Assembly: GCA_965220105.1 (NCBI GenBank)
Contig: OZ244811.1
Coordinates: forward strand, 1,987,136-2,051,135
Direction of reading: 5' to 3'
From: Dehalococcoidia bacterium
Lineage (GTDB): Bacteria > Chloroflexota > Dehalococcoidia > Lucifugimonadales > UBA3495
Length of the DNA stretch: 64,000 bases
The position numbers and the translations under genes were made by a program. This document shows, one piece after another, positions 47,031 through 64,000 of the stretch. The notes under the pieces are model-generated. The model had not been told where the DNA came from. It did not search any database and saw only the letters and a list, made by a program, of their open reading frames with translations. Numbering within the stretch: position 1 is the stretch's first letter; every line of letters begins with the position of its first letter.

Positions 47031-48118
47031 ATTACAACGACGGTTCAAGGAGGGATGTTCGGGGATGCGCGAAGGGCGGCGCGCCGCTTGGCGTGGGAGC
47101 GTCTGGCCCGTTCGTTGCATTCTTGGGTCTGCTCCAGCCACCGCAGCAACTCATCCGGCCCGAACCGTTCCCGGGGCAGCAGCTCCCTGACCACCCGGTA
47201 GACCTGCGGTCTCGTGATCCGGGGCATCTTTCTCCCCCCAAGCCTGTTGCAGACTCAGGAGAAACGCTCCGCCCAGCAGGCACAGGGTCACGTGATGATG
47301 CCAGCCCGCCCAGGTGCGGGTCTCGTACTCGTCCAGCCCCACATCGCTTTTTTCAGTCTCGAACTCGGTTTCAATGCGCCACCGCGACCCTCCCACGTAG
47401 GCCAGAGTCTCCAATGGGGTGTCCTCTGGAGCGTTGGACAGGTAGTAGCGGGGCTCGCTGCCGTCCCGGTTCTGGCGGTAGACGGCCCAGTGGATTTCGC
47501 CAGGCTTTCGCTTACTGGTCGACCGCACCCGCTGGGCGCTGAACTGGTAGCTGCGGGGACCCTGGCTTCCCTCCGCCACCGTAATCTCCCGCCAGGCCTC
47601 CTCCGGCAATTCAGCACTGCACTCCACCAGGGTGCGCCGCTGCCCGCCCTTGAGCCTGGGTTTGCGGGGACGCCCGATCCCCTGATACTCCGGACTGGTC
47701 CAAGCTGGCTCCAGCGGCCAGACCGTAGTGCCGCCGGGAACGTCCAGCACGTAGCGCATCCCCAGAGCCGCCAGTCCCTCCCGGAAGGACGGCGACATCC
47801 CGAAGGCGTCCTATGACCACGTCATCATCCCAAGGGGATTCAGCGAGAAACCGCTGCATCACCCGGGCTGACGCCGGAACCGTCTCCGACAGATTCTCGG
47901 CGTTGCGCCGCTCCCCGGACTGCACCAGCAGGGCCTGCAGATAATGACGACTGTGACCCCGCGCCTCCCGGCGGCCAAACAGCGGAGCGAAGTAAGCGTG
48001 AAAATCCTGAAAGGCCCCGTCCACCTGCTCGAAAGCCGCCGCATCCATTCCCCTGCCTCACCTGCTCAAGTCTTCCCCAGTACCCCACCATCCTACCATG
48101 CCAACCGTCGTTGTAATA
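47031..48118 (-). mobile_element. IS701-family element, copy C, internal-deletion derivative
   Basis: Both IRs are present. The transposase N-terminus (47611-48048) jumps from ..VVIGRL to the SPSFREGLAALG region (47151-47798). About 350 bp are missing relative to copy B. Confidence 0.85.
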
Positions 48119-55385: not shown

Positions 55386-56430
<1,045 letters not shown>

Positions 56431-56561: not shown

Positions 56562-57209
56562 ATGGATACGCTCGTCAGCAGCATCGAAAAGTTTATCTTG
56601 AAACACGAGGATGCGGTGTCCGCCGCTTTGGAATACATGCTGTCGCACCACAAGTCGGCGTCTAGAGGCTTGCACTCGCTGGTGCGGAAGGGATGCGCCG
56701 ACTTCGTGCAAGTCGAAAGGTTTTTGTGCCAACATCAGGACGAGAATGGGGCTCGCCCCGACCTGGTGGGGCGCGACGGCGATGGACCCGTACGGCTGGT
56801 CATTGAAGCGAAATTTTTCGCCGGTCTCGCTGAGCAGCAGCCCAACGGATACATCGCCCTCCTACCGGAAAAGGGGCCATCGGTGCTTTTGTTCCTGGTG
56901 CTTCAGCAGAAGTTGGATACCCTTTGGCAGGTAATCTGCTCCAAAGCCCGCGAATCGCATGAGTTGTTGGAGAACGCCGGCGGCCCCGACTGACGGTGCG
57001 CGACTATCGCCGAAACGGAACGCTACCTGATGATGGCGACGTGGGGTGAACTGACAAGCTGCATGAACCTAGAAGTGGAGAATGACATTATCGCATGGGG
57101 TGGGGCAACAGATGGGCCGGAGCGCAGCAACAAAGCGGTTGCGTTCGCATTGTTCGATTACGACCTTAGGCAATTAACAAGGCTGATTGAACTGAACAGC
57201 CGCCCTTGA
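56562..57209 (+). pseudogene. PD-(D/E)XK nuclease-like protein, probably frameshifted
   Basis: GARPDLVGRDGDGPVRLVIEAKF fits a D...(D/E)xK core. After the stop at 56991-56993, plausible coding continues in another frame (..IAETERYLMMATWGELTSCM..) to 57209. Confidence 0.4.
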
Positions 57210-57544
57210 ACCTGAAATTCAATGATTGCCTTACTTAGGGGAATGGCAGACACTTTGCGGCGCTTTTGTCCCGGCGGGAGGAAGGCATCCTTGACTGGGC
57301 AAGCCTGACAATCCTCCTGCAGGGCCACATACTGGTAGGAGTGATTCCGCCGGTGGAAGGAGCCACGGCGCAGGGTCCTGCCTTGCGGGCAGACCAGGTG
57401 GCCGCCGTCAAAGGAGGCGCCCCAGCGGCTCCGCCGGAGCAGTTGCGCCGCGAATTCTGGGTTGCTGCGGAGCGGCTGTTGGCCAAACCTGATGTGTTGC
57501 GCTCGTGCATCAGGAAAGTGGGTCGTATTCAGTCGATCGTTCAT
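57158..57544 (-). pseudogene. IS1182/IS5-superfamily transposase internal fragment
   Basis: ..HLVCPQGRTL.....YQYVALQEDCQACPVKDA.. is the Cys-rich block seen in such transposases (compare CTCPAG...CWVCPLRSQC at 24890-26710). No termini. Confidence 0.45.
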
Positions 57545-57590
57545 GCGTCAGTAATAGGACAGAACCCTGGACAACAACGTTGATTACGTC

Positions 57591-58355
57591 TCAGCCGCCG
57601 AGCAGCATGGCGGCTACGGCGATGAGGGCCGCGCTGGACAGCGTTCCGATCACCACCCAGTTGCGGATGCTGAGCGGCGCCTTGCCGTCTTCCGATGCGA
57701 CCGCTGTCGCCTGCCCTGCATGGCCTGCTGAGGAGGAACTCGAGGCAGTGGCCGTTGCCCTGGATCCAGCGGAAGCTCCGGCCGTACCGCTTCTTTGTTG
57801 GTTTCCCCGTGGTGGGCTGGTGCGGCCTGGTCCGCCGGGCCGTGTGTATGTCCGGTGGCTCTGCTGCTGGTTGTCCCGGGGCTGGCGCGGGCCTGGTGCA
57901 CGGCGTCGGGTTACCGGGCGTCCGGCCTCGGCGTTCCGCAAGTCTTCTTCGAGTGCCTTGAGCCCGTGAGTATAAGCCCTAGTGGTGAGTGCCCAGTCGA
58001 GGAAGTCGCCCTTGTAGCTGTGGTCGGCGTCGGGGTGTTGGTCGGCGTACCTTATCCAGATCTCGTCCAGGTGAGCCACCTTGATCTGCTGGTGGAACAC
58101 GGTTTCCCGTCGCTGCCATTCGTTCTTTTCCCGCTCTCTGGCCCCTGCGTTTCTGCGCTGGCTCCTGCGGTCCATTTCCGCTTCGGCACGTCGGCGTTTC
58201 TCTTCGCACTCGTCGATGCGGTTGACATAGTCCCGCGCCAGCGCCGACAGTCGGCAGGCGTCGGGCCGCTGACCTTTGGATGGCGTCGGCGGCGGATGGT
58301 TTGGGCGGCGTCCCACGTGGTGGTAGGCGGCTCCGAAACTCTTTCTCTGGTTCAT
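57591..58355 (-). CDS. Tail-anchored protein with charged coiled-coil region and low-complexity linker; last gene of the triad operon
   Basis: ATG 58355 (MNQRKSFG..). ECEEKRRRAEAEMDRRSQRRNAGAREREKNEWQRRE, a Pro/Gly/Ser/Arg-rich linker, and a single C-terminal TM (NWVVIGTLSSAALIAVAAMLLGG). Strong GC3 bias. Confidence 0.6.
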   Translation of the reverse strand: MNQRKSFGAAYHHVGRRPNHPPPTPSKGQRPDACRLSALARDYVNRIDECEEKRRRAEAEMDRRSQRRNAGAREREKNEWQRRETVFHQQIKVAHLDEIWIRYADQHPDADHSYKGDFLDWALTTRAYTHGLKALEEDLRNAEAGRPVTRRRAPGPRQPRDNQQQSHRTYTRPGGPGRTSPPRGNQQRSGTAGASAGSRATATASSSSSAGHAGQATAVASEDGKAPLSIRNWVVIGTLSSAALIAVAAMLLGG

Positions 58356-58612
58356 CGTATCGCTTCCGATGCTGTCGCATTCAATACTGGTATGCCTCGA
58401 TGGCATTCTGATCGTGACCCGCATCGCGTATAGCGTTCGGGCTTTTTGGGACGTCTCACCCGCTACCTGTACTCGAATGTTTTCTGGAAGTATTCCTGCA
58501 GCTCAGGCGTGAGTGCCCCCCACTCCAGCTGCTGTGCCCGGGAAGGCTGGATGTACTGCTCGCCGTGGCTGTGGAACGGGAAGTATCCCAGCCGGATCCG
58601 GTCAGGAGACTT

Positions 58613-59410
58613 CTACGCCGGTTGGGCGCTTGAGGTGAGTCGGCCGGAGTACGGATGCTGTCCATCGCAGAGGGCCTGGTACGCGAGGACGCCCAGTGAG
58701 AAGCGGTCGTGTTCCGGCTTCCGATCGAAGCATCCGTGTCTGGCCTGGTGGCCGGGTGGCCCCTCGAGACAACCGCTGGTCCGACAGGGCGCGGACATCG
58801 TTTTGATGATCTCGGGCGGCTGGTACTCGGGTCTGCCGACCCGGCATCGGAACACGCCACCGCCCGGTTTCGGCACCTGGAATGAGTCGGCGTCCAGCAC
58901 CATGATTCGCCCGTCGGGCCAGGCCAGCAGGTTCTTGTCGTTGACGTCGCCGACGGCGTAGCCGGCGTCGTGCAGTTCTTGCATTGTGTCGGCGTACCTG
59001 ATGACTATTTGTGCCATCAGTTCCTGCATTTCGCGCCGGCTCTTCAGGCTGATTCCCCGATGTTTCTTTCGCAGTTTGCGGGAGGCGAACGAGGCGGCGG
59101 GGATGTAGCCGACCTCAGCCCGTTTCATGAGATAGCCGTGGGTCTCGCCGTCCAGGTCGGCGATCAGCCGGGCTAGCGGCCAGGCGACCGTGCTGGGCGC
59201 TCTGCCGCCTGGAGGACGGCTCACCATCTGCCTGAGTTTCTTTTCGATGTGCGGTGGACGCATTCCCCTGCGGTACACCTTGGCGACGATGTCTGGGTTG
59301 CCCGTGACCTCGTAGACCACGCCCTCGCCGCCCTCGCCAATTTGGGCGCCGAGCAGCACCCGCTGGCCGTCCGGAAGCCGGTAGGCTTCATGCTGTTGAC
59401 TCTGCTGCAT
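58613..59410 (-). CDS. Ser/Thr protein kinase (TerY-P-triad type, YegI-like), ends at an in-frame TAG
   Basis: IGEGGEGVVYEV (Gly loop), VAKVY (Lys), HDAGYAVGDVNDKNLL (catalytic loop), VLDADSF (DFG-like) and PEYQPPE. AAAGGAGG lies 6 nt before the ATG. 49 further sense codons follow the TAG in the same frame (58463-58612). Confidence 0.8.
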   Translation of the reverse strand: MQQSQQHEAYRLPDGQRVLLGAQIGEGGEGVVYEVTGNPDIVAKVYRRGMRPPHIEKKLRQMVSRPPGGRAPSTVAWPLARLIADLDGETHGYLMKRAEVGYIPAASFASRKLRKKHRGISLKSRREMQELMAQIVIRYADTMQELHDAGYAVGDVNDKNLLAWPDGRIMVLDADSFQVPKPGGGVFRCRVGRPEYQPPEIIKTMSAPCRTSGCLEGPPGHQARHGCFDRKPEHDRFSLGVLAYQALCDGQHPYSGRLTSSAQPA

Positions 59411-60248
59411 CTTCGGCCTCCTTTCCGTCGTCTGAACGGACGTTTTGCCGGTGGTGTTCCGTCTCCGGTGTCCGGTGCAGGAGGGTCGCCTGGAACATGG
59501 TGAGGTCGTCGTCGGTGCGCCGTCTCACCATGTCGCTGAGTAGCAGCCCTTGCATCTGCCGGAACGCCTTCTCCTGGCTGGGGTTGCTCTCCAGCCAGGA
59601 GAAGGTTCCGTCGAAGTACGGCGCGTGGGGCACGTTCCCGGGTTGTTGCAGCGTCAGGCTCATCATGCCGTCGGTGCAGAGCATGACGCGCTGTACCCCC
59701 GTGATCTCGTCGCTTACCGACATTCGGCAGACGGCGCCTTCCTCGGTGATGAACGATGTCTCGTTGGCGTACTCGCCGTGCTGTGGCTCACTGGTCAGGA
59801 TCCAGCCTTGATCGATGCCGACCACGCAGGCTCCGTCGCCAACCTGCGCGGACGCCGAGCGTCCGTCTACTTGGACAAACGCGGTGAGCGTGGCGGCGTA
59901 TTCCCGCAGCGGGATCCCAGACGTTTCGACCTCGCGGACCACTGCGTCGCGCGCGGCGGCGAACGTCCGGCGGAGCAGTTGGTTCAGGTCCTGATCCGGC
60001 CTCTTCGTGATCCCCGCCCAGGCGTATCCCAGAGCGGCGGCGCCGGCGGCGTGCGCGCCTGCTCTGCTCTGCTGGGCGCTGCTCGCGCCGTCGCAGACCA
60101 CGACCACGAGTCGGTCGGTTCCGGGCAGGGTTCGGTACCAGAGGGCGTCTTGGTTGGGGGCATCCCTCTTGACGTGCTTGGTTCCCGCCACACTGGCGGC
60201 AGCGACGAACCACCGGTTGACCTGGTCTAGATTTCGACTTCCAGCCAT
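59388..60248 (-). CDS. PP2C-family protein phosphatase (PP2C_2 type, YegK-like)
   Basis: ASVAGTKHVKRDAPNQDA, VVVVCDGASSAQQSRAGA, AQVGDGACVV and VMLCTDGM. The start overlaps the vWA stop by 22 nt. Confidence 0.85.
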   Translation of the reverse strand: MAGSRNLDQVNRWFVAAASVAGTKHVKRDAPNQDALWYRTLPGTDRLVVVVCDGASSAQQSRAGAHAAGAAALGYAWAGITKRPDQDLNQLLRRTFAAARDAVVREVETSGIPLREYAATLTAFVQVDGRSASAQVGDGACVVGIDQGWILTSEPQHGEYANETSFITEEGAVCRMSVSDEITGVQRVMLCTDGMMSLTLQQPGNVPHAPYFDGTFSWLESNPSQEKAFRQMQGLLLSDMVRRRTDDDLTMFQATLLHRTPETEHHRQNVRSDDGKEAEDAAESTA

Positions 60249-60958
60249 GCGCTTGGATCCTCCAGTTTAATCTTGTCGCCGACGCCGGAGTTGGGCACCG
60301 CCACCATGGAGTTGGCCAGCCATTCGAGCAGTTCGTCGTAGGCCGCCGTCTTCATGGGCTGGGTGCGGTCGGTGATCTGCCGCAGTTGCGCCTTGGTACC
60401 GTCGTACTTGGCCGCGCCGTTGAGGATTACGAAGGTGTTCACGCCTTTGGCTTTCTCGGTCTCCCGCACTCTGCGGGCAGTGGCCGGCACCTCGTGGGCG
60501 TCGCCCATCATGCCATCGGTGAAGATGAGCATCCAGGGACGGAAGTAACCCACGCCGTTGGCCCGGTAGGTGGCTTTGCGGTTCTCGATCATGTCGAGGG
60601 CGCGGTTCACGGCTTCGCACATTTTAGTGCCGCCCCCCGCGAACAGCGGGCCTGGGTTCAACTCGTCAATGGAGCTGAACTCCTGCCGCACCTCCGTCTG
60701 GTGGTTGAAGGCGACCAGCGCTACCTCCACCCGCCTGGTGGCGACCGGGTCAGCGAGCACCGTACAGCGGAACTTCTCGATGGCAGCGTTGAGCATCCCG
60801 ATGTCTTCTTGCATGGAGCCAGACACGTCAACGACAAGCGCGACGGGGCAGCGGTCATCGTTGTTTTCGGCGAAGTTGCTCATCTGCTCGAAGGCGATAT
60901 CATAGCCGTCGTTTGGTCCGAGGTAGTTTCTCTCAGGGTTCGATAGGTTCAGGGTCAT
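60227..60958 (-). CDS. vWA-domain protein (TerY / YegL-like)
   Basis: MIDAS VALVVDVSGSM, ..GGGTKM.., LIFTDG. 243 aa. AGGAGGTG lies 7 nt before the ATG. Ends in TAG. Confidence 0.85.
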   Translation of the reverse strand: MTLNLSNPERNYLGPNDGYDIAFEQMSNFAENNDDRCPVALVVDVSGSMQEDIGMLNAAIEKFRCTVLADPVATRRVEVALVAFNHQTEVRQEFSSIDELNPGPLFAGGGTKMCEAVNRALDMIENRKATYRANGVGYFRPWMLIFTDGMMGDAHEVPATARRVRETEKAKGVNTFVILNGAAKYDGTKAQLRQITDRTQPMKTAAYDELLEWLANSMVAVPNSGVGDKIKLEDPSAWLEVEI

Positions 60959-61017
60959 TTCAATTCACCTCCTGGTGACTGGCGGGTTTGGGCCTTGCTG
61001 AACGTATGTTTCATATT

Positions 61018-61524
61018 TCAGGGTTGTGGAGCGTTTCCGGATGACCGGCCCAGCTGGACGTTTATCCGGTTGTAGATGTTCTTGGTGATGGATTGGATGC
61101 GGCCGCGCGGTTCCGGTTTTCGGTGGACCCAGTCGACGAACATGAGGGACGGAATAAGCGCGGACAGCAGCAGGGTGGTGAGGTATCCCAGCCAGACTTT
61201 CTCCAAAGAGACGCTGGCTATGACCGGATACAGGGCCACCAAGGCAAACAGGGTGATCGCGGTCTTGGTGCCTTGCGTTCCGCGCCACCTGAGCCACAGG
61301 TATGCGGCGCCCGCGACCATTATTCCGCCCGTCATGAGGAAGCCCATGACGTCTCCGAATCTCTGTAGATCGGAGCCGTTAGTGAGGTGCATTCCGAACA
61401 CGGACACGGTGTTTCCGTAGTCCTCGGGGTACACCCAGGGCAGGCCGAAGGACATGATGATCAGGAAGGCGTGGACGACTCCGGCCCACCTTTTCTGCAT
61501 CAGGTTCTCAACGTCAAGTTTCAA
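61018..61524 (-). CDS. Four-TM integral membrane protein, unknown family
   Basis: TTG start 8 nt after AAGGAG. Hydrophobic segments VVHAFLIIMSFGLPWV, VMGFLMTGGIMVAGAAYLWL, AITLFALVALYPVIASV and LGYLTTLLLSALIPSLMFV. Confidence 0.65.
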   Translation of the reverse strand: MKLDVENLMQKRWAGVVHAFLIIMSFGLPWVYPEDYGNTVSVFGMHLTNGSDLQRFGDVMGFLMTGGIMVAGAAYLWLRWRGTQGTKTAITLFALVALYPVIASVSLEKVWLGYLTTLLLSALIPSLMFVDWVHRKPEPRGRIQSITKNIYNRINVQLGRSSGNAPQP

Positions 61525-61608
61525 TTCATAGACTCCTTGTTTCGGGGCTTGGCCCCGTCGGGGCCGTGCCGGTCTTTTCGGGTTGGCGTTGTTGCCCTGA
61601 CGCTACGT

Positions 61609-62637
61609 TCAGCTGCTCTTCATGGCCTCGGCGAGGCCGGCGGTCTCCGCCTCAAAGGCGTACAGGCTTTCCAGGAGCAGTCCCACCTGCAGGGGAACGT
61701 CCAGGTCGTCGTACTCGGTTATCGCCTTGAAGTCGGACTGGTTCTTGTAGAATAGGATGAACGTGTTCATGTCCTCGATTTTCGACAGCGCTTCCGCCGA
61801 CCGCATTTCCACATCCGAGGCCTGCTGGCGCCACTGGTCGTAGGCGTTGGTGTCGTTAACCAGCGACAGCCACATTACCTCGCGCAGCCTGGGGTTGCCC
61901 TGTCTGTCGATGAGGGCAATCTGCTCCTCCCAGTACTCGGGCCACAGCTCGCGGGTGGCGTCGATTCGCTCCACCAGTTCTTGGTGTTCGCGCTTGGCGG
62001 CTTTATACTGCGGCCTCCAGTTATCGACTATCCGGTCCATGGCTTCCCGGTGCTGGGTCAGCGCCCTGTCGCCCTGGATCTCGCGGGCCTTCTGGTTGAA
62101 CGTCAGTGTGGGCGGAACCGCCCTTTCCGCGTCGTTGCCCTCGTCTTGGTCGTCCTTTTCGTCGATCGACTCAGGCGCGTGCGACGCCCCGCCGTTGGTC
62201 GGATTAACCCCGTATGTAGGGCCGGAGACGGAGCCGGTGTTATTCGAACTGGCGTGCTCCGGCATGGGGATCCTGCCCGGGGTGGTCGGCGAGGTATAGT
62301 CCAGCTGCGAGTTAGCGCCGCTGGTTGGCTCGTCGGCGTAGGCGTCGGGCGGCACCGCCTCAAGGCGTTCCACCTCGGGAATCAGCCCCTTGATGTCCGT
62401 GAAAGCGGCTCGCGTGTCGTCGACTTGACGGTTGACCCGGCTGGCGGCCTCGGCGACCTGCGCGCCGGCGTTTCCCTCGTGGTTGAAGACGGCGGCCGCA
62501 GCGGCCGACATGAGGAATACGGCGACCACCACGGCGAGCGCGATGGGCCGTTCGTCGTTCTTTCGTTTGCGGAACTTTCCGATCATTTTGTCGACCTCCT
62601 TCCACTCGATAATTGTCGTCGCCTTCGGCTTGCTCAT
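61609..62637 (-). CDS. Single-pass membrane protein with disordered linker and ~180-aa helical C-terminal domain, unknown family
   Basis: TM segment PIALAVVVAVFLMSAAAAAVF, an acidic/Gly-rich linker, then a helical part (..REHQELVERIDATRELWPEYWEEQIALIDRQ..). Alternative start at ATG 62586, 8 nt after AAGGAGG. Confidence 0.65.
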   Translation of the reverse strand: MSKPKATTIIEWKEVDKMIGKFRKRKNDERPIALAVVVAVFLMSAAAAAVFNHEGNAGAQVAEAASRVNRQVDDTRAAFTDIKGLIPEVERLEAVPPDAYADEPTSGANSQLDYTSPTTPGRIPMPEHASSNNTGSVSGPTYGVNPTNGGASHAPESIDEKDDQDEGNDAERAVPPTLTFNQKAREIQGDRALTQHREAMDRIVDNWRPQYKAAKREHQELVERIDATRELWPEYWEEQIALIDRQGNPRLREVMWLSLVNDTNAYDQWRQQASDVEMRSAEALSKIEDMNTFILFYKNQSDFKAITEYDDLDVPLQVGLLLESLYAFEAETAGLAEAMKSS

Positions 62638-62931
62638 TTGATCGCCTCGCAACAGGGGCTCAATCTCCTCCTGGGCAAAACAGACCTCAGAAACGCAGCC
62701 CCCAGAGTACGTCTCCGTCTGAGGCTGTGTTGTCGTTAAATCCGCTGCTCGCCAGCAGCCTTAGCCTCCCGAACGATGTACCGGATCGCGTTCTTCGTTT
62801 CCTGGCGGCGGGCTATTGGCGAGGTATCTCCCGGCATCATGCCACCAGCGTCCGCGGCGCCACCCGGAAGCAGCCGCTGGTGGTCTCCAGGACGAGGAGC
62901 GCCATACCCCGCTCCCCCGGGACGGCGTGTC

Positions 62932-63267
62932 CTACGACATCGCCCACTCGCGCACCCTCACGGTGCATGGGATCATCACATCCAGTGCCTGGAGTCGCTG
63001 TACTCGGTGCCGACCCACCTCTGCCCGCCAAGACGAGAGGTGGCGGTAGTCATCGATTTCAACCTCTCCCACCGCCGCGCGGGCTGGCGCCACATGAGTG
63101 AAGCTGTCCCCCAGGTCGTTGGCTTTGCGCACAGTAGAGCTGGTCGCTGCGGTCAGGTCATTGGCCTCGTCGCGGCCTTCGCTCCACCGGTCGGCCACGA
63201 CCGGCAGCGCCACGGATTCGATCACCACGGCTGATGCGGCGATGGCTCCGATGGTTAGTAAGCCCAT
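62932..63267 (-). CDS. Small single-TM protein, unknown family
   Basis: GGAGGTGAAGAT-ATG at 63267. MGLLTIGAIAASAVVIESVALPVV, then a polar domain. High GC3. Confidence 0.5.
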   Translation of the reverse strand: MGLLTIGAIAASAVVIESVALPVVADRWSEGRDEANDLTAATSSTVRKANDLGDSFTHVAPARAAVGEVEIDDYRHLSSWRAEVGRHRVQRLQALDVMIPCTVRVREWAMS

Positions 63268-63309
63268 ATCTTCACCTCCTGCGGCTTTCATTCGACGGAT
63301 CCCTGGTAT

Positions 63310-63621
63310 TCATGAACTCCGTCTTCGCTCCGTTGCACGCGGCCTCTCCGAAGGCAATGTTGCGCCCGCTGAACTTGTCCGGTTCCACCCCTGGCCATCA
63401 TCTTGGTCCTTGTCTCCACCATTGGACACGTCTCCGAACGGCCCTTCGTTGCCTGGATGGTAGCCATCGGTCTGCTGGTCGAAACTGCTTTTGGCGAAAG
63501 CGCGGGACCGGCCTGTCCTCGACCGTTGATGGTGTCGAGCAGCGGCGCCCGACCCGTTGGACTCGCAGGCGATGACATTCCCATTAGCTGGGGTAACGCG
63601 GATTGGCTTCCAAACAGTCAT
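63310..63621 (-). CDS. Small hypothetical ORF at the head of the operon (weak call)
   Basis: AGGAGG lies 11 nt before ATG 63621 (MTVWKPIRVTPANGNVIACESNG..). Composition is low-complexity and GC3 only moderate, and a competing frame (63288-63584) exists. Confidence 0.3.
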   Translation of the reverse strand: MTVWKPIRVTPANGNVIACESNGSGAAARHHQRSRTGRSRAFAKSSFDQQTDGYHPGNEGPFGDVSNGGDKDQDDGQGWNRTSSAGATLPSERPRATERRRSS

Positions 63622-63696
63622 GCTCGTATCAGCCTCCTGATATGGATGCAATGTTACTTCAATATGGCATGGTATCGTGCCAGAATCAACATATCC

Positions 63697-63727
63697 ATTA
63701 TATCAGCGACACATAAAAGTACGGCAA
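63697..63727 (-). promoter_or_regulatory. Candidate sigma70-type promoter with extended -10 for the triad operon
   Basis: The minus strand reads TTGCCG (63722-63727), 19 nt, then TGATATAAT with TATAAT at 63697-63702. It lies about 75 nt upstream of ATG 63621 in an AT-rich patch. The spacer is longer than optimal. Confidence 0.3.
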
Positions 63728-63761
63728 AAGGACACAGGTAATATACTTCATTCAGTACTAA

Positions 63762-63827
63762 TACTTTTCCCTGCTGCTACTTTTAGAAGGACGGTACTTT
63801 GTCCTGCTGCTACTATTAGAAGGAGGG
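63762..63827. repeat. Two tandem 33-bp direct repeats upstream of the operon
   Basis: TACTTTTCCCTGCTGCTACTTTTAGAAGGACGG (63762-63794) and TACTTTGTCCTGCTGCTACTATTAGAAGGAGGG (63795-63827), 29 of 33 identical. Followed by the palindrome GGCGCGTCCGCGCC. Confidence 0.7.
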
Positions 63828-63912
63828 CGCGTCCGCGCCGGATCATTTGCCCTACCCTGATCGGCAGGACCGATTGTCATCAATCAGTAATCGTCGGCTC
63901 GACGGCATACCA

Positions 63913-64000
63913 AACCGAAGCCAAGGTGAAACCCGCATCAGCATTGCGTAGAATCGAGGCAGTTGAGTTGGTGGGTCAGGAGATCCGGGTGGGGGTTGCT
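63913..64000 (+). mobile_element. ISx left end (runs off the window)
   Basis: AACCGAAGCCAAGGTGAAACCCGCATCAGCATTGCGTAGAATCGAGGCAGTTGAGTTGGTGGGTCAGG... parallels 18765-18855. Confidence 0.75.

Follow-up and report, generated by a model that had tools for sequence, protein, structure and literature searches.

A six-gene accessory cassette of a Dehalococcoidia bacterium combines a YegL/PphC/YegI-type triad, with a truncated kinase gene, and three membrane proteins

Triads of a von Willebrand factor A (vWA) protein, a PP2C phosphatase and a Ser/Thr kinase are widespread in bacteria, E. coli included. Protection against phages has been reported for such triads, and the signal they sense and their target are unknown. 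A stretch of 64,000 nucleotides of a Dehalococcoidia bacterium (NCBI GenBank assembly GCA_965220105.1, contig OZ244811.1, positions 1,987,136 to 2,051,135 of the forward strand), which as a whole is called the window here, harbours such a triad on its minus strand, surrounded by genes for unfamiliar and mostly membrane-bound proteins. Which of these genes belong with the triad, and what do they do together? The initial annotation had described an operon of eight genes, and all eight minus-strand open reading frames (ORFs) were found where it had placed them. However, the unit at window 57591-62586 (minus strand) has six genes and not eight, and it is one copy of an accessory cassette. Its genes are, in order, g3, g4, a YegL-like vWA gene, a PphC-like PP2C gene, a YegI-like Ser/Thr kinase gene and g8. 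We read the cassette as a cytoplasmic phosphorylation switch of the YegL/PphC/YegI type, framed by three membrane proteins, that is probably a conflict system and is probably dead in the window, and to this reading as a whole we give about an even chance. The features of the cassette are the following.

61609-62586, minus strand: g3, a 325-aa type-II membrane protein (from orthologue starts, a GGAGG motif and hydropathy)
61018-61524, minus strand: g4, a 168-aa protein with four transmembrane (TM) segments, predicted N-in/C-in from hydropathy
60227-60958, minus strand: YegL/TerY-like vWA protein, cytoplasmic, with a complete metal ion-dependent adhesion site (MIDAS; DVSGS...T...D; Pfam VWA 5e-7)
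59388-60248, minus strand: PphC(YegK)-like PP2C phosphatase, its start overlapping the vWA stop by 22 nt
58613-59410, minus strand: YegI-like Ser/Thr kinase, cut to 265 aa by a TAG at 58613-58615, its start overlapping the PP2C stop by 23 nt
58463-58612, minus strand: 3' part of the kinase gene left behind the TAG, still in frame, with 49 codons and the ancestral TAG stop (58463-58465)
57591-58355, minus strand: g8, a 254-aa tail-anchored protein (from an AlphaFold2 (AF2) model, hydropathy and orthologues)

The extent of the cassette is seen from independent copies. Contigs around relatives of g3 were retrieved and searched by tblastn with all window proteins. Homology to these copies covers g3 to g8 only, from ~62601 to 57587. 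In L013, DNA homology begins at window position 62601, in the ribosome-binding site of g3, and ends at 57587, at the stop codon of g8, and both edges are sharp. Intact six-gene cassettes including g8 were found at three loci, all with the gene order kept. Amino-acid identity to the window genes is 85-94% for L012, 56-80% for L013 and 39-73% for L014, the last with a 1399-aa HEAT-repeat ORF (L014:11143-15342) inserted between g3 and g4. The order g3-g4-vWA-PP2C-kinase is also present in L004, L008 and L009, but these copies are full of frameshifts, and L006 retains just g3, g4 and a kinase fragment. Five unassignable proteins had been counted with the triad; g3, g4 and g8 do co-occur with it in the same order at independent loci, whereas g1 and g2, the two most upstream ORFs, do not. 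Across all six genes dN/dS (Nei-Gojobori, deeper pairs) is 0.14-0.5, with 0.18-0.25 for g3, 0.22-0.31 for g4 and 0.33-0.5 for g8, and g3, g4 and g8 are therefore real genes under purifying selection. The conservation of these neighbours, which had been proposed as a check, was thus found in independent loci.

Details of the gene arrangement agree with the first description. The PP2C gene does share 22 nt with the end of the vWA gene, and the kinase gene 23 nt with the end of the PP2C gene. Both overlaps are kept in L012 and L013; L014 keeps the 22 nt, and its PP2C/kinase junction is 14 nt. The vWA, PP2C and kinase genes are translationally coupled through these conserved overlaps. AGGAGG or GGAGG motifs precede g1, g2, g3 (ATG at 62586), g4, vWA, PP2C and kinase, and motifs of the GGAGG type sit 7-12 nt 5' of most starts. 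For g3 the frame is indeed open up to 62637/62652, but the likely start is ATG 62586 rather than 62637, because orthologues begin at the matching residue and a GGAGG lies 8 nt upstream. Hydropathy confirmed one TM segment each in g2, g3 and g8 and four in g4, and the same scan gave no TM segment for vWA, PP2C, kinase or g1. A promoter and terminator scan of the minus strand was uninformative.

The three enzymes form a genuine YegL/PphC(YegK)/YegI-type, TerY-P-like triad, as had been proposed, with 41%, 32% and 28% identity to the E. coli proteins. The vWA protein carries the DxSGS MIDAS motif noted earlier, in the form DVSGS (Pfam VWA 5e-7, VWA_2 1.4e-6). It aligns with E. coli YegL over 217 residues (41% identity, E 1e-42), with the DxSxS, T and D residues in register; its database relatives carry the name 'YegL' and it matches phrog_28389 at 1.3e-44. 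Three relatives of this protein (P0072, P0074 and P0075) are truncated to 134-136 aa, have a poly-Asp insert and nearly all end in ...RKDTY or ...RKDTC. The clusters of P0072 and P0075 hold 53 and 56 member sequences, and one decayed vWA copy appears to have been amplified many times. The phosphatase assignment was borne out by Pfam PP2C_2 (9.4e-36) and by 32% identity to E. coli PphC (E 2e-32). The kinase assignment holds as well; the Pfam Pkinase match of the window ORF itself is weak (2.8e-5, below the gathering score), and the intact L012 kinase shows 28% identity to YegI residues 1-280 (E 2e-32). Intact orthologous kinases keep the catalytic Lys and the GDVNxxN and DxDSFQ motifs, and stop after the kinase domain at 315 aa without a C-terminal fusion. 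For all three enzymes the matching PHROGs families are of unknown function. The kinases of this clade have an insert of ~17 residues with the pattern C-x4-C-x7-H-x5-C in the region of the activation segment (kinase residues ~205-232, window 58700-58800). This insert may be a zinc knuckle; E. coli YegI and a cyanobacterial kinase are without it.

The E. coli operon yegL-pphC(yegK)-yegI has the same vWA-PP2C-kinase order, and the three proteins are homologous along their whole length. YegI however has a 350-aa membrane-spanning C-terminal half where the cassette kinase is a 315-aa soluble domain. The cassette furthermore adds g3, g4 and g8, and E. coli yegJ and yegD are without counterpart in it. 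YegI spans the membrane twice and is a kinase that is dephosphorylated by PphC (10.1101/303594, 10.1101/819920). The TerY-P triad was defined by Anantharaman, Iyer and Aravind (2012). TerY-P-like modules are reported as stand-alone anti-phage systems (Gao et al. 2020, as cited in PMC11090510 and PMC7699616). The view of the initial annotation that the biological role of such triads is unresolved is outdated in the light of this report and of YegI/PphC as a characterised pair. TerY-P triads are described as mobile, as associated with a variety of partner modules and as frequently disrupted (PMC4978471, PMC11090510). The cassette shares the logic of a TerY-like vWA, a PP2C and a Ser/Thr kinase, mobile or accessory DNA, variable partners and frequent disruption with the systems of Anantharaman et al. 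(2012) and Gao et al. (2020), as described in PMC11090510, PMC4978471 and PMC7699616. According to PMC11090510, the published anti-phage TerY-P has a kinase-OB-fold fusion and the CoCoNuT-linked form a kinase-zinc ribbon fusion; the cassette has neither. Known TerY-P partners are DNA/RNA-processing or WXG100/FtsK modules, while the partners in the cassette are three membrane proteins and no recognisable enzyme. The nearest vWA relatives outside the clade (~40% identity) belong to cyanobacterial vWA-PP2C-kinase(WD40) triads with the same gene order, in which PP2C and kinase are homologous too (37% and 33%). There the kinase is fused to WD40 repeats, and g3, g4 or g8 neighbours are absent. From these comparisons the cassette would be a lineage-restricted, envelope-coupled form of the known triad, in which no domain is fused to the kinase and three dedicated membrane proteins have been added.

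In g3, a short basic cytoplasmic N-terminus is followed by a TM segment (32-50) and a juxtamembrane helix that is conserved; a linker of variable, low-complexity sequence then leads to a conserved three-helix C-terminal domain of ~160 aa. This domain is predicted to lie outside the cell, because basic residues precede the TM segment (positive-inside) and paralogues carry lipoprotein or signal sequences. A protein search yielded only 57 relatives, all unnamed, nearly all from one ENA metagenome assembly set and many truncated or frameshifted. When 1.84 billion representative proteins were searched with a profile, 106 matched, many of them fragments and some full-length (260-350 aa). Members of this superfamily are anchored at the N-terminus by a TM segment, a signal peptide or a lipobox; they have in common a short conserved helix, a linker that varies and the helical domain of ~160 aa, which carries a W-x-P-R-Y motif. 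No Pfam match was found for g3, no PDB sequence match with family and superfamily profiles, and the best Foldseek match had E 0.3. Twenty-one superfamily members scanned against Pfam at E <= 1 gave no consistent family. Relatives were absent from the JGI metagenome and IMG/VR scans with the g3 profile, and from 72,556 sequenced plasmids (PLSDB) and GenBank phages in a protein search; a DNA search against plasmids gave no match either. A pore-forming toxin of the ClyA/AhlB type was considered for g3 and rejected, the best Foldseek matches (E 0.3-1) reflecting a generic likeness of long helices. A type IV secretion system (T4SS) component (VirB5/TrbJ-like) was likewise not supported, as Pfam, PDB, Foldseek (best E 0.3) and PLSDB gave no match; the sole connection is that a paralogue lies close to VirB4-like genes. 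A second g3-superfamily paralogue of 256 aa with a lipobox lies in L013 (443-1213), 9 kb upstream of the intact cassette there, and is 35-37% identical to the paralogues P0257, P0264 and P0265.

Conservation in g4 peaks in the first outside loop (LPWxYPEDYG...GSDLQxFGD). Behind a distant g3 paralogue (P0191, 31% identity) in L022 lies a g4 homologue of 168 aa (hhalign probability 90%, E 1.8e-6). This pair without the triad (L022:10001-14387, also L023 and L024) lies on a 5.9-Mb contig with 152x coverage and was seen in 23 contigs. Next come a 628-aa TM-anchored two-domain protein and then one of 272 aa, in which collagen repeats are combined with a signal peptide and a TM segment at the C-terminus. 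Since the pair occurs without the triad, g3-g4 is therefore a separable envelope module. The g8 protein has a conserved cytoplasmic helical domain (~33-150; motifs IDECE, ADHxH and FLGWAH), which a polar, Ser/Thr-rich and disordered linker connects to the TM segment at the C-terminus (234-252), and it has only six database relatives. Its AF2 model has pLDDT values (predicted local distance difference test) of 85-96 for residues 33-150, and the model has no PDB or viral fold match. A 'HPD' in the window protein, and the Hsp70-like yegD adjoining yegI in E. coli, prompted the idea of a J-domain protein, which was ruled out as HPD is not conserved in orthologues (QDPN, EHGG) and no Pfam DnaJ match exists. 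Nor is g8 a detached YegI C-terminus by sequence similarity, of which there is none; the likeness remains a positional analogy only. Pfam, NCBIfam, PADLOC and PHROGs gave nothing usable for g1, g2, g3, g4 and g8, the NCBIfam matches of g4 and g8 (E 0.026 and 0.012) being marginal and far below the cut-off. By Pfam and NCBIfam, none of these five flanking proteins carries a TerB, TerC, TerD or TelA domain, which speaks against the suspicion that they might be ordinary Ter proteins. Judged by their sequences, g3, g4 and g8 represent three new putative protein families.

Relatives of the cassette were found in the genome scan only in a narrow set of metagenome-assembled genomes (MAGs) labelled 'Dehalococcoidia bacterium' or 'SAR202 cluster'. 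Several copies are present per MAG, most of them frameshifted, with two copies on one MAG contig, and one copy lies on a 121-kb circular contig with a resolvase. The window cassette is neighboured by CoA-transferase, PrpD and luciferase-like oxygenase genes, an IS110 fragment and a split PD-(D/E)XK-like ORF. Two features with insertion sequence (IS) character flank it.

55403-56203, minus strand: IS110-family transposase fragment in the downstream flank (Transposase_20 1.2e-17, DEDD_Tnp_IS110 1.9e-14)
63907-64000: repeat in common with sequence beside IS630-type (HTH_23/DDE_3) genes elsewhere

The description of IS debris on both sides is backed only in part. The IS110 fragment and IS630-type genes past the window end are real; the transposase genes of the latter type are seen just past that point in the identical contig L001. 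The minus-strand ORF at 57158-57544, which had been called IS debris, has only a weak DDE_Tnp_1_6 match (E 0.012). The claim that the block is accessory DNA is supported. At other loci, the neighbours in L013 are a NERD-helicase (1.5e-23) and a fragment of a CBASS-type 2TM effector (4e-18). L014 has a type IIG restriction enzyme (1e-274) upstream of the cassette and a T4SS_pilin (PF18895) gene ~1.6 kb upstream of it, and after g8 a large ORF with weak AAA_16/nSTAND3/NACHT and HEAT_2 matches (STAND/NACHT-like; L014:19829-20999).

Because of this accessory location, the turnover in copy number, the IS flanks and the defence-gene neighbours, inter-genomic conflict, that is anti-phage or anti-mobile-element defence, is the likely role. 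A mechanism can be sketched from gene order, topology and analogy. The g3 protein would expose its helical domain outside the cell and pair with the 4-TM g4 via the conserved outer loop of g4, the two forming an envelope sensor or membrane module. Occupying the position that a C-terminal fusion of the kinase has in other triads, g8 would probably act as a membrane tether for the soluble kinase of 315 aa or for the vWA protein, or be their substrate. If the envelope is perturbed, for instance when a phage adsorbs or DNA enters, g3/g4 would pass the signal on to the kinase; resetting the switch would fall to the PP2C, and the vWA protein would be the binder of a phosphorylation-dependent partner. 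That an insult to the envelope can trigger a switch of this kind has a precedent, by analogy, in the threonine-phosphorylation pathway of the Pseudomonas H1 type VI secretion system (T6SS; TagQRST-PpkA-PppA-Fha1). Its envelope sensors feed a Hanks kinase and a PP2C, and PpkA carries a vWA domain. In contrast, the cassette vWA is a separate cytoplasmic protein, and g3/g4 have no sequence relation to the Tag proteins. Pfam gave no FHA match in any of the six cassette proteins, and there are no T6SS genes nearby, the window neighbours being metabolic or IS-related.

Several points weigh against a conflict role. The links among g3, g4, g8 and the triad are drawn from gene order and topology only. 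The AF2 model of g3 is poor, with three long helices at a mean pLDDT of 52. Defence neighbours occur at two or three loci only, in IS-rich genomes where neighbours may be arbitrary, and no obvious effector (nuclease, pore-former or NADase) was recognised. The g3-g4 pair of L022 stands amid ordinary-looking chromosomal genes, which fits a general envelope role at least as well. PADLOC gave no match for vWA or PP2C and only weak mad6 and PD-T4-6 matches for the kinase, intact orthologues included. As a control, E. coli YegL scores only E 0.032 on the PADLOC 'TerY' model, so these models are narrow. Because YegL itself was barely detected, the PADLOC result speaks for distance from the validated system and not for an absence of kinship.

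These points lead to the strongest alternative, an ordinary envelope-signalling module outside defence, in which g3, g4 and g8 are surface or membrane-homeostasis proteins reported on or regulated by the kinase/phosphatase pair, and in which copy number and decay reflect only IS-driven erosion of the genome. Some bacterial Hanks kinases monitor the cell wall and offer a parallel. The pair without the triad stands beside the 628-aa membrane-anchored and collagen-repeat surface proteins and, on its 5.9-Mb contig, has genes for transporters, proteases and regulators around it; paralogues of g3 are lipoproteins or surface proteins with a signal anchor, and no defence model of PADLOC matches the cassette proteins. 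E. coli yegLKI, too, is of unknown function (10.1101/819920). On the other hand, the cassette is confined to the narrow Dehalococcoidia/SAR202 set of MAGs, with none in the JGI metagenome and IMG/VR scans. Several copies per genome are mostly pseudogenised, and a housekeeping module is not expected to be lost and duplicated so freely. The cassette is moreover IS-bounded and adjoins defence genes in L013 and L014. We consider this alternative unlikely, while it deserves to be taken seriously.

The conflict system proposed here is probably dead in the window itself. The TAG at 58613-58615 falls at codon 266 of the kinase gene, where L009 reads CAG and L012, L013 and L014 encode Q or E. As orthologues have CAG or GAG at that codon, the TAG was rejected as an ancestral feature; it is a CAG-to-TAG nonsense change, through which 50 conserved residues at the end of the kinase are lost. 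This tail can be aligned with E. coli YegI and a cyanobacterial kinase and is, because of this alignment, part of the kinase domain. The second contig, L001, was assembled with the identical sequence, TAG included. The other five window genes are intact, with catalytic or MIDAS residues. In a relative-rate count against L012 at conserved sites, 34 substitutions were window-specific and 31 L012-specific overall, without clear asymmetry, and an excess decay of the window copy was thus not borne out. At four positions that do not vary among the other orthologues, however, window g8 is changed (FLGWAH to FLDWAL, among others). It was concluded from these comparisons that the nonsense mutation is, by all appearances, a recent inactivating change, and the switch of the window is probably dead. 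The suspicion of a dead remnant thus holds in part: the kinase gene is nonsense-mutated here and most other copies are frameshifted remnants, but five window genes are intact.

It is improbable that the window copy still functions, with an active 265-aa kinase, partial read-through of the TAG or five genes that work without the kinase. The remaining five genes with their catalytic and MIDAS residues, the lack of excess substitutions (34 vs 31), the same sequence in L001 and the 49 undamaged, in-frame downstream codons would all fit such a function. Yet conservation of the missing segment between E. coli YegI and cyanobacterial kinases marks it as part of the kinase fold, all intact orthologues have 315 aa, an undamaged downstream frame is equally expected from a recent mutation, and window g8 is altered at its four otherwise invariant positions.

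Two further lesions concern the kinase gene at other loci. The cassette of L011 is intact but for one lesion, a homopolymer shortened from G7 to G6 in the region of the kinase P-loop (L011:13290-13300), which could be an assembly error or strand slippage. In L004 (13233-15531) a segment of ~0.9 kb with the 5' half of the kinase gene is present in triplicate in tandem (13233, 14133 and 15028), and internal marks recur at 900/895-nt spacing.

A more specific form of the conflict role would make g3, g4, g8 and the triad an undescribed envelope-triggered immune system in which the membrane-tethered kinase is a costly, growth-arresting effector. The extracellular helical g3 would be the sensor that, with its partner g4, notices at the cell surface that a phage or foreign DNA is entering, and turns the kinase on. 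Toxicity of the kinase would explain why kinase-inactivating lesions are the sole damage in two otherwise intact copies, those of the window and L011. The idea that lesions of the kinase come first is weak, however, as the change in L011 could be an assembly error, and we regard this specific form as doubtful. If true, it would be the first mechanistic lead to the signal sensed by triads of the YegL/PphC/YegI type. More generally, the cassette points to the envelope as the place where this branch of the triads may receive or deliver its signal. The three families g3, g4 and g8 are newly defined, and the intact versions of L012 (10001-15038) and L013 (10001-15083) measure ~5 kb. Practical value is limited by the narrow range of uncultured hosts and by the broken kinase gene in the window copy.

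Upstream of the cassette lie the two remaining ORFs of the supposed operon.

62932-63267, minus strand: g2, stump of a g3-superfamily paralogue, outside the conserved cassette (likeness to P0264)
63310-63621, minus strand: g1, unsupported ORF of low-complexity composition, without TM segment or wider homologue

Both match only the near-identical L011 and L012, and both are frameshifted there. Of g2 only the first ~64 codons (TM residues 3-21 and a juxtamembrane helix) are recognisable, with 48% identity to residues 1-63 of P0264, a 267-aa g3 paralogue (E 1e-10). P0264 itself is located on a 528-kb circular contig (L018:10001-10804), with HEPN_Swt1 and DUF2201 (VWA-like) genes on one side and, on the other, a convergent operon that includes a VirB4/TraG-like ATPase together with an ORF of 1373 aa. 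A conjugative function or cargo on a plasmid or integrative and conjugative element (surface or entry exclusion, or control of mating-pair formation), with g3 as an extracellular helical component, could be read from this ATPase neighbour, from the likeness of the stump g2 to P0264 above all others, from the T4SS_pilin gene near the L014 cassette and from the copy on the circular contig with a resolvase, but it is very improbable, since no T4SS genes adjoin the cassette in the window, L012 or L013, P0264 is convergent with the ATPase operon and not within it, and g3 is without a Pfam match, T4SS families included, and without relatives in the 72,556 plasmids.

Minor observations were made in the surroundings. 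The PD-(D/E)XK-like ORF of the window (56562-57209, plus strand; PDDEXK_4, E 1e-3) is split into pieces of 143 aa and 59 aa, and is whole in L012 (15420-16070, 216 aa); it converges on the cassette in both. A DDE_5 transposase fragment lies at 47151-47798 on the minus strand, among metabolic genes. Together with the IS110 fragment, it is consistent with an IS-rich, eroding genome.

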